A stretch of DNA of 64,000 nucleotides from a virus, in the IMG/VR virus record IMGVR_UViG_3300023202_000135, positions 1 through 64,000 of that record; one strand, written 5' to 3'. Below the pieces are notes generated by a model. It had not been told where the DNA came from, ran no database searches, and saw nothing but the letters and a program-made list of their open reading frames with translations. Positions 16,287 to 59,158 of this stretch are shown here, one piece after another (within the stretch, counting starts at the first letter, position 1; the number at the start of each line of letters is the position of its first letter). The translations under genes were made by a program, and so were the position numbers.

Positions 16287-17783
16287 TTACGTAAGATCGG
16301 CCGTCTTGATCGTTCCGCCGTCATTGTAGGCGAACGTGACGTCACCCGTCGCCGTATTTTTGTGGATACCGCAGTCTTTATCATTCGGGTACTCGGTCGT
16401 GGTGGGTGCGGCGGATGTTGTCGTGAACCCGGCGATTCGCAGCGATCCGGATCCGATGGTCAACTGATCGGCCACCGTGACATCGCCGCTCAGCGTCCAA
16501 GTGTCGAGGCCGGCGTTGTAGCGGGCAGCCTCGCCGCTGGTTTGCTTGTTGACGACGAAATCATGGTCGAGTGCATCCGGGTTGACGATGCTCTCGTCCT
16601 TCGTCCACTGCGCGACTTCGACTCCGCCCGAATTGCCTTCCTCGTTGACGGCGAGGATCCAGTGGGCGTCGAACCCGGTCGCGTCGTCGGCTGGGGTATT
16701 AGTGACGAAGCCGAAGAGCCCGACGCCTTTGTAGTACGACGCACCCGTGTGGCCTTTGCCCTCCAACCCGACGAGGATGTCGCCGGCTTGAATCTTCTGC
16801 GGGGCGCCTTGGGTGCCTCGTCCTCGGTGGCCCGTGAAATAGGCAGCATGCCAGTCGGTTGCTGAGAAGGTTTCCCCGACGATATATTGCCAATCGTCGT
16901 CGAAGTTCTCGACAGAGAAACTGCTCCCGTTAAGGCTATTGACGAGCGCGTACAGGGCGCCACCGATGCGCACGTTCTTGTCGGCGCCAATACCACCAGC
17001 AACGACGAGCGCGCCGTTGGTCGGGAGCGTGGCATCAGTAGTCGCCTCGATCTCCAAGCGGTCGGCGAAGGTCGACAGGATGTGCGTGCCGCCAACAGTG
17101 GTGCCGATGAACGCGCTGCCAGGGTCGTACCACCAACCGACTTCAAGTGTGATTGGGTCATAGGTGCCATTGTTGTCGTGGAACGCGAACTTGGGGTCGG
17201 TTGCCGAACCGCCACTCCGAGTCCGGATTTCGTCGAGCGCAATGAGGTCGTCACCGCAAACAAGGTCACCGCTGGTAGCGACCTTGTTGTCGCCGATCTC
17301 CAGAATGAGGCTACCGTTGACGACACAGCCGATCAGCCCGAGGCTGTTGATCTCCGTTCCAAACCCGCCGCCCGATCCGCGGTGCGCGTACCAACCGATG
17401 CGGTTGGCGTCGGTATGGCTGGCGGGGTCGAGCGTTCCGTCGGTGAGCGGGAACGCGACGGCGAGGTCGGTCTCCAAACCAAGACTGCCGAGCAGCACCC
17501 CATCTTTAGCGCCGACCTTGCTGCCGGACATGATGTTTCCACCGACCGCGAGACCGCCATTCGGGACCACAATGGCGCCATCGGTCTCGTCGGCGGCTGC
17601 GGTCGCATTGGTGAAGGTCTTTTTCCCGCCGACAGTCTCGTCGCGCGTCCGATCGACGTAGTCAAGTACGGTTTTGATGTTCGATTCGGCCAAATCCGCA
17701 GGCTTGGCAGAGACGCCGAGCGCGTTGCCTTTGAGCGTGTTGGCTGGCATTTCTGCCAGCCACTTGTTCTTGGTCAGAGCCAT
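16287..17783 (-). CDS. tail fibre/spike-like protein
   Basis: Repeated GAIVVPNGGLAVGGNI / GALVVAGGIGADKNV beta motifs. Confidence 0.65.
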   Translation of the reverse strand: MALTKNKWLAEMPANTLKGNALGVSAKPADLAESNIKTVLDYVDRTRDETVGGKKTFTNATAAADETDGAIVVPNGGLAVGGNIMSGSKVGAKDGVLLGSLGLETDLAVAFPLTDGTLDPASHTDANRIGWYAHRGSGGGFGTEINSLGLIGCVVNGSLILEIGDNKVATSGDLVCGDDLIALDEIRTRSGGSATDPKFAFHDNNGTYDPITLEVGWWYDPGSAFIGTTVGGTHILSTFADRLEIEATTDATLPTNGALVVAGGIGADKNVRIGGALYALVNSLNGSSFSVENFDDDWQYIVGETFSATDWHAAYFTGHRGRGTQGAPQKIQAGDILVGLEGKGHTGASYYKGVGLFGFVTNTPADDATGFDAHWILAVNEEGNSGGVEVAQWTKDESIVNPDALDHDFVVNKQTSGEAARYNAGLDTWTLSGDVTVADQLTIGSGSLRIAGFTTTSAAPTTTEYPNDKDCGIHKNTATGDVTFAYNDGGTIKTADLT

Positions 17784-56275: not shown

Positions 56276-56780
56276 CAAGGAGATACTCACCATGCACCCA
56301 CTCCTACAGATGATCGGCGGTTCCCCGCCAAAGTCGCCACTCGACGTGCTGCCCGTCCCGACGAACCGCATCGAAGACCTGTACACCGACATGCAGGCGA
56401 TGGAAGAGGACGGCAGCCACCGGGCTCAGTGGGACTTCTGGCGAAGCGTCCACCGCCATTTCCCTGCCCTGCACGGCAAGGAGTTCCGCCTCAACGTCGA
56501 CCACATCACGCGGCCTGTGTGGGAAGTCACAGGGGACAAGAAGCCTCCGGTCGTCGGCCGCAAGAACCGGCACGTGATCGAAGTCGAGGCCGAACACATC
56601 TACCCGATCCTGGAGATGCTCGACCGCGTCGACTCGGTGCTGGGGCGGTATCGTCTGTGGGCCTTCGTGGAGAAGGAATACCCGGCCACACGCGACCGTC
56701 TCCCCTGGCACATCCATCACGACATGGGTCGAGGCATGTGGCTCGTCGGCCGGCACGCGGACGAGGAAGAGGACGACTGA
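56268..56780 (+). CDS. hypothetical protein with internal duplication
   Basis: Two W..V...(F/Y)PA halves; the true start may be 56292, after AAGGAG. Confidence 0.65.
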   Translation: MINKEILTMHPLLQMIGGSPPKSPLDVLPVPTNRIEDLYTDMQAMEEDGSHRAQWDFWRSVHRHFPALHGKEFRLNVDHITRPVWEVTGDKKPPVVGRKNRHVIEVEAEHIYPILEMLDRVDSVLGRYRLWAFVEKEYPATRDRLPWHIHHDMGRGMWLVGRHADEEEDD

Positions 56781-56808
56781 TTCCGTAGGTCGGATTCAAC
56801 GGAGCGCC

Positions 56809-56846
56809 AAAAGACAGAGCCCCGGGGAACGCCCCCGGGGCTCTTT
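56809..56846. terminator. bidirectional terminator
   Basis: AGAGCCCCGGGG-AACGC-CCCCGGGGCTCT between convergent units. Confidence 0.75.
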
Positions 56847-57147
56847 GCGCATGAATCGGCTGAAAGGTGCGCGGTCGCTGAACGGCACAACCGTAGTGGC
56901 CCTGTGACGAAGTGTCAACGACGAATATGGCTGACCACTTTCGCCAGCGCCTCGGACGTCGCGAGCACAGCTTCGGCCCAGGAGCGGTAGGTGCCGCTCC
57001 AGATATACAGGCTGCCGTCTCCTAGACGCTCTGCGATAATTGCCACCCAACAGAGCGTGTCGACCATGTATATGCGGACCTCGTACACGAGCCGATTCTG
57101 GCACCACGGCAAATGCTGCAACCGCGTCAATATGGCGTAGTGCCGAG

Positions 57148-57218
57148 TTGCCTCCCCTGGACTCGAACCAGAACTAGCAGAGCCAAAATCTGCTGTGCTA
57201 CCATTACACCAGGAGGCA
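57148..57218 (-). tRNA. tRNA-Gln(TTG)
   Basis: Cloverleaf with GCAGA-TTTTGGC-TCTGC anticodon arm and T1-A72 pair. Confidence 0.9.
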
Positions 57219-57220
57219 TT

Positions 57221-57333
57221 GCGTCCGCGCCCCCTTATCCCTGTACTTCGGGGCTTGCGATTGGAGGGCCGGCGTTCCAACCCTCGCGCGCGCGTAGGGG
57301 CGCCCGGGCGCGCGAGAGGAGCAGGGACCGGCC
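57221..57333 (-). ncRNA. unclassified structured RNA between tRNAs
   Basis: Three stems plus two potential loop-tail pseudoknots. Confidence 0.4.
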
Positions 57334-57337
57334 AAAG

Positions 57338-57379
57338 CTGCCAAGGGAGGGGTCGAACCTCCGACCAGCGGATTAACAG
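57338..57379 (-). pseudogene. 3' half of an interrupted tRNA-Asn
   Basis: CTGTTAA-TCCGC-TGGTC-GGAGGTTCGACCCCTCC-CTTGGCA-G. Confidence 0.8.
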
Positions 57380-57382
57380 AAG

Positions 57383-57455
57383 CAGCCGGTGTGGGACTCG
57401 AACCCACTTCTCGCGGTTAACAGCCGCGCGTAAAGACCTGCTATACTATCCGGCT
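57383..57455 (-). tRNA. tRNA-Asn(GTT), nested copy
   Basis: CGCGG-CTGTTAA-CCGCG anticodon arm, GTGGG-TTCGAGT-CCCAC T arm, one acceptor-stem mismatch. Confidence 0.85.
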
Positions 57456-57817
57456 TGACGTGCGTTGTACCTGCCTGCGCATTTGCGTCCGCAGAACAGC
57501 AAGCCTGACCGACGCTGCGCCGCGAATCGAACCCTTGCGCGTGTCCGTTGGAATGCCTTACCGCATTCCGGGCATTCGAGATCAACCGCAGGATGCGCAT
57601 GGCGCGAACCATGATCCGCTCGCTTCACGAGTTCCAAGTTACCCGGTCGATTGTCCCGCTTCTTCCCGTTCATGTGATGGATCAGCTCGCCGGGCCCGGG
57701 GACCACTCCGTGCGTCTCCCAGTAGACGAGGTGATGCTCATAGCAGTACAGGCCTCGGTACCGCTTTCCGGGGTACCCTTCCGGGGCTTTCACCAGCTCG
57801 TACGGCCCGTTCCTCAT
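57446..57817 (-). CDS. HNH endonuclease with C-terminal Zn finger
   Basis: YEHHLV...IHHMNGKKRDNRPGNLEL and CPECG...FCGRKC. Confidence 0.88.
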   Translation of the reverse strand: MRNGPYELVKAPEGYPGKRYRGLYCYEHHLVYWETHGVVPGPGELIHHMNGKKRDNRPGNLELVKRADHGSRHAHPAVDLECPECGKAFQRTRARVRFAAQRRSGLLFCGRKCAGRYNARQAG

Positions 57818-57851
57818 TCGGGTAGTGTAGAACCGGAGTTAACACCGGCAA

Positions 57852-57879
57852 GCCCGCTCTACCGCTGAGCTACTTGGCA
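57852..57879 (-). pseudogene. 5' half of an interrupted tRNA-Asn
   Basis: TGCCAAG-TA-GCTC-AGCGGTA-GAGC; acceptor strand pairs 7/7 with CTTGGCA at 57339-57345. Confidence 0.8.
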
Positions 57880-57882
57880 ATA

Positions 57883-57968
57883 TGGCGGAAGGTCAAGGAA
57901 TCGAACCCTCATGCTTTCACATGGCCCGGTTTTCGAGACCGGTTGGACGCCGTTGTCCGCGACCCTCC
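57883..57968 (-). tRNA. tRNA-Ser(CGA)
   Basis: CCGGT-CTCGAAA-ACCGG, long variable arm, G73, encoded CCA. Confidence 0.88.
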
Positions 57969-57975
57969 GTAGTAT

Positions 57976-58048
57976 TGCTGCGAGGAGGAATCGAACCCCC
58001 GACCCGTCGATTACGAAACGACCGCTCTGCCGGCTGAGCTACCGCAGC
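57976..58048 (-). tRNA. tRNA-Thr(CGT)
   Basis: Anticodon loop TTCGTAA; canonical D and T arms. Confidence 0.88.
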
Positions 58049-58079
58049 ATGAAATGATCGTCCCTGCCCGTCAGGGTAA

Positions 58080-58174
58080 AGCTCCGTCGCGGCCTCGAAC
58101 CGCGTCCTTCCGTTCCGGGTGGGGATCGAACCCATGGGGGAGGTCGACGCCTCCCGAAGCCCATCGAACGAAGC
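58080..58174 (-). ncRNA. tRNA-like RNA with two T-arms and no clear anticodon arm
   Basis: GCTTCGT/ACGGAGC acceptor-like stem; two TTCGA loops. Confidence 0.5.
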
Positions 58175-58185
58175 AACGATCGTAG

Positions 58186-58262
58186 TGGAGCGCGCAGTCG
58201 GATTTGAACCGACGTCTCCTGCTTGGAAGGCAGGGGCCCTAGGCCAACTGGACGATGCGCGC
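58186..58262 (-). tRNA. tRNA-Gly(TCC)
   Basis: CCTGC-CTTCCAA-GCAGG, U73, encoded CCA. Confidence 0.92.
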
Positions 58263-58265
58263 GCG

Positions 58266-58341
58266 TGGTACTCGTGGGCGGACTCGAACCACCAACCTTC
58301 CGCGTATCAGACGGACGCTCTGACCATTGAGCTACACGAGA
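58266..58341 (-). tRNA. tRNA-Ile(GAT)
   Basis: TCCGT-CTGATAC-GCGGA, A73, encoded CCA. Confidence 0.9.
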
Positions 58342-58369
58342 TCGTGACTTGCCACTGTGATAGGTTGTC

Positions 58370-58405
58370 AAAGAAAAAGCCCCGAGCTTTGTAGGCCCGG
58401 GGCTT
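58370..58405 (-). terminator. attenuator terminator upstream of the tRNA array
   Basis: AAGCCCCGGGC-CTACAAA-GCTCGGGGCTT followed by TTTCTTT. Confidence 0.85.
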
Positions 58406-58430
58406 GGTTGGTCCTTGAAGCGAATGCGCG

Positions 58431-58508
58431 TTAGACCATGCAGCCCCGGTCGGTCCATCCCTGGATCGAATTACCGCCGGTGATCTGCGTGGGTTGCGTG
58501 AAGCGCAT
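58431..58508 (-). CDS. leaderless attenuator leader peptide MRFTQPTQITGGNSIQGWTDRGCMV
   Basis: ATG lies 7 nt after the -10 box; codons match the downstream tRNA set; overlaps the antiterminator strand. Confidence 0.75.
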   Translation of the reverse strand: MRFTQPTQITGGNSIQGWTDRGCMV

Positions 58509-58514
58509 GGTCGA

Positions 58515-58542
58515 ATCGTAGTGGTGCGGGGGGCGCAGTCAA
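58515..58542 (-). promoter_or_regulatory. promoter of the leader/tRNA operon
   Basis: TTGACT-N16-TACGAT with ACCAC before the -10. Confidence 0.7.
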
Positions 58543-58567
58543 CGAAACTGTCTCGCGGGCTGAGGTG

Positions 58568-59158
58568 TCAGTCGCCCGGGAGGGCGTCGTACAGCGCAGA
58601 GATTTGCGCCGGGGTGAGGGTCAGGTAATCCGTGCCCTCCGGCAACAGGCCGCATTCGATTGCGGCTTCGCACACGCGCTGATCGTGAGCCAGGAATAGC
58701 GGCATTGGATCCGGCATGCCCCGACGCTCCCACTCCTGGCGTATCTTTCTTCGGTACTCCGCGTCGTCCTGTTCCTCGGCCGCGTGCGCATCGGCGGCCG
58801 TGTTGAAGGCCTGCACCACTTTGACCTCGGTGGCCTCGAAAACCGGAATGGTCAGGTCCTTGGCCAGCTCATCGTCGTACTCGTGTACCTCTGTCATCAC
58901 GTACGTGGCCTGAACCATGAGGTAATCAGCGAACTCATCGGCATCCTCTCGAAGTTCGATGTCATCGGCGTCGTACACGTCCATCGCGTAGTCCCACCAC
59001 AGGTCCAGCAAGTCGTGCAGGTCGTCCCACGCCACTGACCCCGGGTCGGGCGGCCATGCAGTTCCAGCAATCGGGTCGAGGGTATCCAATCCCCCTGAGA
59101 AAATAATCCTTCCGACGAGGGTAATCGGTGCCTTGGTGGGTCGGTTGTGCGCGATCAT
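58568..59158 (-). CDS. hypothetical acidic protein
   Basis: AAGGAG SD; upstream promoter TTGCAC-N17-AATACT at 59182-59210. Confidence 0.65.
   Translation of the reverse strand: MIAHNRPTKAPITLVGRIIFSGGLDTLDPIAGTAWPPDPGSVAWDDLHDLLDLWWDYAMDVYDADDIELREDADEFADYLMVQATYVMTEVHEYDDELAKDLTIPVFEATEVKVVQAFNTAADAHAAEEQDDAEYRRKIRQEWERRGMPDPMPLFLAHDQRVCEAAIECGLLPEGTDYLTLTPAQISALYDALPGD

Follow-up and report, generated by a model that had tools for sequence, protein, structure and literature searches.

A candidate leader-peptide attenuator upstream of the tRNA operon of an uncultured phage

The DNA analysed here is the first 64,000 nucleotides (nt) of the IMG/VR virus record IMGVR_UViG_3300023202_000135 (positions 1 to 64,000, hereafter the window), which belongs to an uncultured phage known from a metagenome assembly of 90,692 base pairs (bp) and 64% G+C. 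On the minus strand, between positions 58,370 and 58,542, a promoter-like sequence, a short open reading frame (ORF) and an intrinsic terminator stand immediately before an array of six transfer RNA (tRNA) genes. The best single explanation of this arrangement, held with moderate confidence, is that it constitutes a ribosome-mediated (leader-peptide) transcription attenuator placed before a phage tRNA operon. This reading is favoured because several features, each expected at a level of 1-2%, fall within 170 nt, because the tRNAs appear to have no other route of transcription and because an analogous element is found in the phiCbK-like phages (Dolichocephalovirinae). The components of the locus are as follows.

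58515..58542, minus strand: sigma-70-like promoter, TTGACT (58542-58537), 16-nt spacer, TACGAT (58520-58515); 9 of 12 consensus matches
58431..58508, minus strand: leader ORF, 25 codons plus TAA (58433-58431); peptide MRFTQPTQITGGNSIQGWTDRGCMV; without a Shine-Dalgarno (SD) sequence
58458..58499, minus strand: candidate control codons 4-17, TQPTQITGGNSIQG; 13 of 14 within the array's six-amino-acid set
58440..58488, minus strand: predicted 1:2 hairpin (anti-antiterminator or pause hairpin), -21.5 kcal/mol; sequesters region 2
58442..58449, minus strand: region 2, CCGGGGCT, within codons 20-23; nearly copies the terminator 3' arm
58391..58455, minus strand: alternative 2:3 antiterminator, a predicted fold with an outer 8-bp helix and an inner hairpin (58438-58409)
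58368..58405, minus strand: intrinsic terminator, 11-bp stem (58405-58395 / 58387-58377) with 8 G-C pairs, 7-nt loop and T-tract TTTTTCTTT; -20.2 kcal/mol
57147..58341, minus strand: tRNA array, in the order Ile(GAT), Gly(TCC), Thr(CGT), Ser(CGA), HNH gene, Asn(GTT), Gln(TTG)

The sequence elements and their geometry can be read directly from the DNA. An initial annotation, made from the sequence alone, had described the TTGACT-N16-TACGAT promoter, an ATG at the expected +1, the codons of the ORF and a terminator upstream of tRNA-Ile, and all of these are present where it placed them. The ATG at 58508 lies 7 nt past the -10 hexamer (6 nt intervening), that is, at the predicted +1, such that the transcript would be leaderless, and an in-frame TGA at 58541-58539, inside the -35 hexamer, bars any earlier start of the ORF. 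The ORF overlaps regions 1 and 2, and its stop codon is situated 26 nt before region 3, the 5' arm of the terminator. The promoter-like TTGACT-16-TACGAT sequence is one of only nine such sites in the 90,692-bp genome; eight of the nine are on the minus strand, seven have a 16-nt spacer and three lie within the 55.5-58.6 kb accessory island. Five of the six array tRNAs pass the Rfam tRNA threshold, and the first of them, tRNA-Ile, starts 36 nt past the end of the terminator stem. The intervening 35 nt contain a TTGACA (58371-58366) with no usable -10, so that the check for a promoter downstream of the terminator returned none that could serve before tRNA-Ile. Since no promoter fits in this interval, the tRNAs should be reachable only by polymerases that pass the terminator.

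The first of the unusual features is the composition of the leader peptide, in which 15 of the 25 residues belong to the set of amino acids carried by the array (T, Q, I, G, N, S). For codons 4-17 a recount gave 13 of 14, in agreement with the initial annotation. At least 15 residues within the set were found in 2.0% of 119,577 random stop-free 25-codon windows drawn from the six frames of this genome, and in 0.6% of 349 real short ORFs. A count of 13 was reached by only 19 of 181,302 14-codon genome windows, at seven loci; the other six of these loci are of low complexity, consisting mainly of G, S and T runs, and none covers all six amino acids. A cognate codon for every one of the six anticodons is present in 0.2-0.6% of windows. 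When evaluated with a region-level scan statistic, which allows any frame and any 10-25-codon window in a segment of equal size, the match has p=0.013 for amino acids and p=0.008 for anticodons with wobble; a scan requiring all six amino acids to be present gave p=0.0015, this last statistic having been chosen post hoc. In a comparison independent of the genome, all 38,760 sets of six amino acids were ordered by their enrichment in the peptide, and that of the array came 263rd. Overall, the amino-acid match is unusual at about 0.3-2% under four different nulls.

The second feature is a pair of helices (2:3 and 3:4) that are predicted to be mutually exclusive as they share the 5' arm of the terminator. 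Region 2, CCGGGGCT (58449-58442), is an 8/8 complement of this arm, AGCCCCGG (58404-58397), exactly as first annotated, and the TGGTC/GACCA extension proposed alongside it is present as the inner helix of a fold of -28.2 kcal/mol. Of 5000 random genome segments of 103 nt, 1.5% contain a perfect 8-nt complement of the arm (p=0.015), and the duplex between region 2 and the 5' arm, at -19.2 kcal/mol, has p=0.02 against random segments. Among 19 listed terminator-like sites, collected by a strict rule from this genome and 19 related loci and including several overlapping calls of one hairpin, this terminator is alone in having a complement of at least 7 nt upstream, the others having 6 nt or fewer. 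In isolation, the 65-nt 2:3 piece, whose boundaries were set after the fold was seen, reaches -28.2 kcal/mol (z=-3.66); none of 200 shuffles is as stable.

The minimum-energy fold of the transcript consists of a 5' mini-hairpin, the 1:2 hairpin (58488-58473 with approximately 58449-58440, -21.5 kcal/mol) and the terminator (-20.2 kcal/mol). The protector helix originally suggested, in which ATGC-GCTTC pairs with GGGGC-T-GCAT, is absent from the predicted folds; the segment 58488-58473 sequesters region 2 instead. The transcript as a whole is more stable than all 200 of its shuffles (z=-3.41), mostly on account of the terminator; for the 5' leader by itself z is -1.77, with 10 of 200 shuffles folding equally well. 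Ribosomes were represented by a mask of 28 nt. With the mask at codons 7-10 the terminator, whose equilibrium probability is otherwise 0.97, fell to 0.27-0.67, and stalls elsewhere had no such effect. When the transcript was truncated ahead of the 3' arm, the 2:3 fold had the lowest energy as long as the mask stood at one of codons 1-16, and this pairing was lost from codon 17 onwards.

If the attenuator reading is correct, the transcript would begin with the A of the 58508 ATG or with a neighbouring nucleotide, and the resulting 5'-AUG would be bound by a ribosome. Smooth translation to the TAA would bring the ribosome over region 2 (58449-58442), whereupon the terminator (58405-58377) would form and transcription would stop before tRNA-Ile. 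A stall anywhere in codons 4 to about 15, nearly all of which specify Thr, Gln, Ile, Gly, Asn or Ser, would instead hold region 1 open; region 2 would then pair with the terminator 5' arm and the polymerase would continue into six tRNA genes for the same amino acids. The phage tRNAs so produced would relieve part of the stalling, with the consequence that the circuit would limit its own output. The start site, the translation of the ORF, its coupling to transcription and the physiological signal are inferred in this scheme. The trp/his/thr type of attenuation to which the locus was initially assigned fits as far as the layout is concerned (the ORF, the placement of its stop and the exclusive helices), although the protector helix and the codon-level match, considered below, do not bear it out.

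The third line of support comes from the phiCbK-like phages, of which Caulobacter phage CcrBL10 stood out in the survey of other phage tRNA blocks described below, with blocks at p=0.017 and 0.11. Its leader has the following composition.

CcrBL10 leader, before a Val-Ile-Ile-Val-Gln-Gln-Ile tRNA block: TTGACC-17-TAGTTT, 7 nt, ATG, 31-codon ORF (MSKSYRQFVQIQVVRNF...)

This ORF contains CCGGGCGGGCC, which nearly repeats the 3' arm of the terminator; beyond the stop codon, some 30 nt lead up to the terminator, whose stem is 15 bp long. Caulobacter and Brevundimonas phages share the element at 67-92% nucleotide identity, and eight of them were aligned (CcrBL10, phiCbK, BL57, CcrColossus, CcrPW, CcrSC and the Brevundimonas phages Kikimora and Domovoi). 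The -35 (TTGAC) and the ATG are conserved and the ORF is open for 31-32 codons in all eight phages; the distance of 7 nt from the -10-like hexamer to the ATG is that read in CcrBL10. For the antiterminator, 97.7% of 88 cells of the alignment are paired and three pairs have changed on both sides, a result matched by 2 of 500 shuffles, whilst the terminator is 100% paired, also with three pairs changed on both sides, and none of 500 shuffles reaches its paired fraction or covariation score; these values derive from eight related sequences and thus from few independent events. In CcrSC, the in-ORF segment is identical, letter for letter, to that phage's own altered terminator 3' arm. Between 9 and 13 of codons 2-18 encode amino acids of the following tRNA block in the eight phages. 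The alignment shows that a design in which tRNAs are preceded by a putative promoter, an ATG at the predicted +1, a short ORF that is rich in amino acids of the tRNA block and repeats the terminator arm, and the terminator itself exists in an unrelated phage family and is kept there by selection. The leader in the window has every part of this design at similar spacing.

Two further observations were made on these phages. A second candidate leader in CcrBL10 (L021) may be the annotated 45-codon gp078 at 16917-17170, which is rich in Ala, Leu, Thr, Lys, Pro and His, and also Ser, and is followed by a hairpin with a T-tract and then by a Pro-Pro-Thr-Lys-Leu-Leu-Leu-His-Ala tRNA block (p=0.009-0.017 by the scan statistic). 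In phiCbK, CcrRogue and others (L039 1295-1370), a tRNA-Phe is annotated between the leader terminator and tRNA-Val; in the sequence of CcrBL10 that aligns to this position (L021 19040-19200), no tRNA is called either in the record or by ARAGORN.

A number of findings weigh against the attenuator reading, the first group of which concerns the initiation of transcription and translation. The promoter match is modest (9/12), and the genome as a whole contains no more sites of this kind than shuffles predict. All four of the other promoter-led genes that were read in this phage have starts led by an SD sequence, and the leader ORF has none, which makes its translation wholly dependent on the predicted +1.

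Codon choice adds nothing to the signal from the peptide. Given the peptide, 30-35% of synonymous recodings, drawn with the codon usage of 46 long ORFs, contain at least as many cognate codons as the leader. Half of the Thr codons in the leader (the two ACC) and three quarters of its Gly codons (two GGC and one GGT) lie outside the reading range of the phage Thr(CGT) and Gly(TCC) tRNAs. The claim that each anticodon of the array has a leader codon that it reads is true, yet full anticodon coverage of this kind is obtained in 11-21% of the same recodings and is therefore unremarkable beyond the peptide itself. As codon choice is ordinary once the peptide is given, the signal resides in amino-acid identity and not in particular anticodons, and the weakness of the codon-level match makes the more specific proposal of a tRNA-depletion sensor fit less well. 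In that proposal, the leader would act as a multi-input decoding gauge, in which scarcity of any host Thr, Gln, Ile, Gly, Asn or Ser tRNA would stall the ribosome, phage replacements would be made and the gate would close again; this is regarded as doubtful. The scarcity could be triggered by phage-induced host shut-off, by starvation or by a tRNA-cleaving defence nuclease. If true, such a gauge would be a self-limiting counter-defence circuit of an unpublished kind, with a design common to the phiCbK-like phages.

The folding results also bear unevenly on the attenuator. When the terminator arm is allowed to pair with anything on its upstream side, the energy gained is no different from that given by shuffled or random sequence in the same place (p about 0.5); G+C-rich RNA always offers some pairing partner. 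At equilibrium, the full transcript favours the antiterminator only for stalls at codons 7-10. Furthermore, the 2:3 fold is already the minimum in the ribosome-free cut transcript, and folding consequently cannot distinguish a stalled from an untranslated leader. The folding with and without ribosome masks that had been suggested as a check is thus compatible with attenuation but not diagnostic of it.

The comparison with other arrays is similarly unfavourable. The survey took in 12 loci from other phages, with 34 tRNA blocks, and scored 10 of these loci: six GenBank phages (Streptomyces Comrade, Caulobacter CcrBL10, Ochrobactrum OC, Vibrio pVp-1, Stenotrophomonas DLP_6 and Microbacterium Magritte), picked only for one tRNA resembling one in the array, and four IMG/VR contigs found via the HNH gene. 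Blocks were called with aragorn in a blind pipeline, and 230 or 500 nt upstream were evaluated with the same scan statistic, each locus serving as its own null. Single-tRNA blocks and blocks with less than 90 nt upstream were left out; two loci (L027 and L033) had no scorable block and three (L030, L031 and L034) had no tRNA. Depending on block definition and upstream length, a leader/array match at p<0.05 was obtained in 1/31, 2/27, 0/7 or 2/34 blocks, with a median p of 0.44-0.71, and the sole match under the first of these settings is inside an HNH gene. By a strict rule that misses imperfect stems, just one of 79 gaps from the six GenBank phages has a terminator within 120 nt before a tRNA. 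The search for leaders that mirror their arrays in other phages is accordingly null-like, from which it follows that phage tRNA arrays do not in general have mirrored leaders. A look-elsewhere effect also has to be considered, as an event of 1-2% will appear by chance when many arrays are read, and the initial annotation came from a search for such patterns across many windows. Within the Dolichocephalovirinae, where it could be asked whether related leaders track tRNA content, a swap test did not discriminate, the leaders fitting their own block no better than those of the other seven phages (10.6 versus 10.1 of 17).

Finally, the locus offers no comparative material of its own. The leader and array gave no megablast or blastn match to GenBank phages, leaving no homologous leader in which conservation could be assessed. 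There is likewise no sequence variation, as the pieces of the phage present in two other DNA runs are identical to the window; the three DNA runs belong to one study, and one of them may be the source of the record. The listing of runs that contain the phage included no RNA run.

Of the alternatives to an attenuator, the one that survives best is plain punctuation: a leaky terminator would end transcription from upstream (capsid gene, HNH gene and the 58568-59158 ORF) or insulate the tRNAs, read-through would be unregulated and everything else would be coincidence. In keeping with this, three capsid relatives (L001, L015 and L016) have a terminator just past the capsid gene, which indicates that terminators belong in this neighbourhood, and the null context-energy and codon-level tests, the null-like survey, the missing SD sequence and the modest promoter match are what such an arrangement would produce. 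It would nevertheless require roughly independent oddities to coincide within 170 nt, namely the amino-acid match (0.3-2%) and the 8/8 complement (1.5-2%). It would also leave to chance that one of nine promoter-like sites has an ATG exactly 7 nt past its -10, that the stop codon is so placed as to let a terminating ribosome cover region 2, and that the same layout, with covariation support, occurs in an unrelated phage family. Punctuation is for these reasons considered rather unlikely.

A second alternative accepts that the terminator/antiterminator switch is real and supposes that it is set not by translation of the ORF but by a protein, a small ligand, an RNA (e.g. tRNA) or the speed of transcription. 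The mutually exclusive folds, which are the best-supported part of the locus, are retained under this explanation, and the preference of the cut transcript for the 2:3 fold without a ribosome, the lack of an SD sequence and the weak codon-level match would all be accommodated. However, a scan of 56700-58700 on both strands at E<=1 gave no match within 58370-58560 to the T-box or any other Rfam family, the amino-acid mirror and the ATG at the predicted +1 would be left unexplained, and the reading frame of the analogue is open in 8/8 phages at 67-92% nucleotide identity. A switch of this type is judged quite improbable. Least probable, and very much so, is a stand-alone unit of promoter, about 135 nt and terminator that encodes a small regulatory RNA or a 25-residue peptide and has no control over the tRNAs: a promoter and a strong terminator within about 140 nt is the usual shape of a small-RNA gene and the whole transcript is more stable than any of its shuffles, yet that stability is mostly the terminator's and the leader alone is far less distinctive, neither the peptide (IMG/VR 30-mer search) nor the RNA (Rfam) has a homologue, and both the transcription of tRNA genes that lack any promoter between themselves and the terminator and the copying of the terminator 3' arm by region 2 would be unexplained.

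Were the attenuator confirmed, the supply of phage tRNAs would be demand-driven and not constitutive, and classic attenuation would gain a new class of target. Why and when phages use their tRNA genes is an old question that has been sharpened by work on tRNA rescue. Taken alone, the locus is one sequence from an uncultured phage, and the cultured Caulobacter phages are better suited to experiments; its value would be as an independent instance of a design that is backed by covariation in the phiCbK-like phages.

Several known systems resemble the candidate in part. T-box riboswitches are terminator/antiterminator leaders of aminoacyl-tRNA synthetase genes that bind uncharged tRNA and need no ORF; the likeness lies in a terminator/antiterminator choice that reports tRNA status, and the difference in the lack of a match at this locus to the T-box or any other Rfam model at E<=1. 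Leader-peptide attenuators of enterobacteria can be multivalent, as in thr (Thr/Ile) and ilvGMEDA (Ile/Val/Leu), and are also known for trp, his, leu and phe. The candidate shares with them a promoter-proximal short ORF rich in putative control codons, a predicted layout of alternative 1:2, 2:3 and 3:4 helices and a terminator, and one leader would likewise sense several amino acids. It differs in that phage tRNA genes, and not biosynthetic enzymes, would be regulated, in that its ORF has no SD sequence and would have to be leaderless, and in that its control codons are single and mixed in place of tandem runs and are not specific to the downstream tRNAs. The window leader has no sequence homology to the enterobacterial leaders. 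An account of one of these, the pheL leader, is given in PMC3082878.

In mycobacteria, leaderless polycysteine short ORFs are reported to act as cysteine-responsive attenuators (bioRxiv 10.1101/834739). As described there, the transcript starts at the start codon of the short ORF and the decoding of this ORF sets downstream expression, in common with what is proposed here, whereas one amino acid is sensed and the operon controlled is cellular. The Anabaena PCC 7120 trn operon, a silent tRNA operon reported to be induced under translational stress (PMC8421152, PMC10272220), is the nearest case found of an accessory tRNA array that is kept off and turned on when translation is impaired, which is also the behaviour proposed for the phage array. 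According to these accounts, however, its control is exerted at the promoter, through direct repeats bound by the repressor TrcR, and it resides on a cellular megaplasmid and not in a phage; the strings 'attenuat', 'leader' and 'terminator' do not occur in the main text of PMC8421152. Phage tRNAs have been reported to rescue infection from tRNA-cleaving defences (PMC10264068, PMC11555353, PMC11464382). No account of attenuation of phage tRNA genes was found in the literature, in line with the statement in the initial annotation that no phage tRNA array was known to be regulated in this way.

The phiCbK-like leaders share with the candidate the order of their parts (TTGAC -35, ATG, ORF, in-ORF near-copy of the 3' arm, stop, terminator, tRNAs). 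No evident sequence similarity to the window leader was seen, the two not having been aligned, and the phiCbK-like leader is for this reason treated as an analogue and not as a relative. The terminator of phiCbK is about 130 nt before the first tRNA, compared with 36 nt in the window. The phiCbK-like family has relatives for comparison and this phage has none, whilst translation and regulation are putative in both.

The remaining features of the region are listed below.

61620-60115, minus strand: capsid gene
60015-59344, minus strand: HNH gene
59158-58568, minus strand: orphan ORF
56912-57064, minus strand: 50-codon ORF (MVDTLCWVAII...), between tRNA-Gln and the second strong terminator
56844-56816, minus strand: second strong terminator, 3' of the 50-codon ORF

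The ORF upstream of the leader has no tblastn match in GenBank phages, and only itself was found in IMG/VR and in 5.8 billion proteins. An exact 30-mer of the leader does not occur in IMG/VR. A 20-mer of tRNA-Ile is also absent from IMG/VR, and four JGI metagenome contigs share just 22-24 nt with it and hold no tRNA. For the capsid gene, 19 relatives were obtained from IMG/VR (53-68% identity), none of which has a tRNA within 8 kb of the capsid gene, and five whole records of capsid relatives have no tRNA anywhere. The lack of nearby tRNAs in these relatives implies that the tRNA island is an accessory insertion in this phage. A strong terminator is situated about 30-35 nt after the capsid gene in relatives (L001 3198, L015 9507, L016 9537); none was found after the capsid gene in the window, where the HNH gene, the orphan ORF and the tRNA island are present instead. 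At the other end of the island, the 50-codon ORF at 56912-57064 would be the final gene of the tRNA transcription unit.

Several candidates were considered and set aside. The leader is not a degenerate tRNA by the measures applied, as it has no match to the tRNA model and gave nothing with aragorn at default settings. The BoxA consensus is GYTCTTTAANA (PMC5725501), and the possible site TTTCTTTGACA at 58376 has two mismatches, a level equalled by 37 sites in the genome and bettered by none; the consensus is gamma-proteobacterial and may not suit the host. A naive count of synonymous and non-synonymous changes in the Dolichocephalovirinae leaders was unreliable owing to a codon indel and was not used. 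In the 56700-58700 interval, the Rfam matches were the tRNAs, together with the reverse strands of two tRNAs that matched an unrelated family. The 136-nt gap between tRNA-Gly and tRNA-Thr (58049-58186, minus strand) contains two T-arm-like motifs; no tRNA was called there by ARAGORN (default) or Rfam, and the gap may represent a tRNA remnant or a tRNA-like RNA.

The HNH gene within the array (57817-57446, minus strand) directly precedes tRNA-Asn(GTT). The flanks of this HNH/tRNA-Asn unit are a tRNA 5' half (approximately 57887-57864) and a tRNA 3' half (approximately 57360-57335) with complementary acceptor strands (region 57320-57890). In four of nine IMG/VR loci that carry homologues of the HNH gene at 49-56% identity (L026-L029), a tRNA-Asn(GTT) is likewise positioned within about 100 nt after the gene. 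The HNH gene and tRNA-Asn together look like a mobile cassette that would target tRNA-Asn genes.

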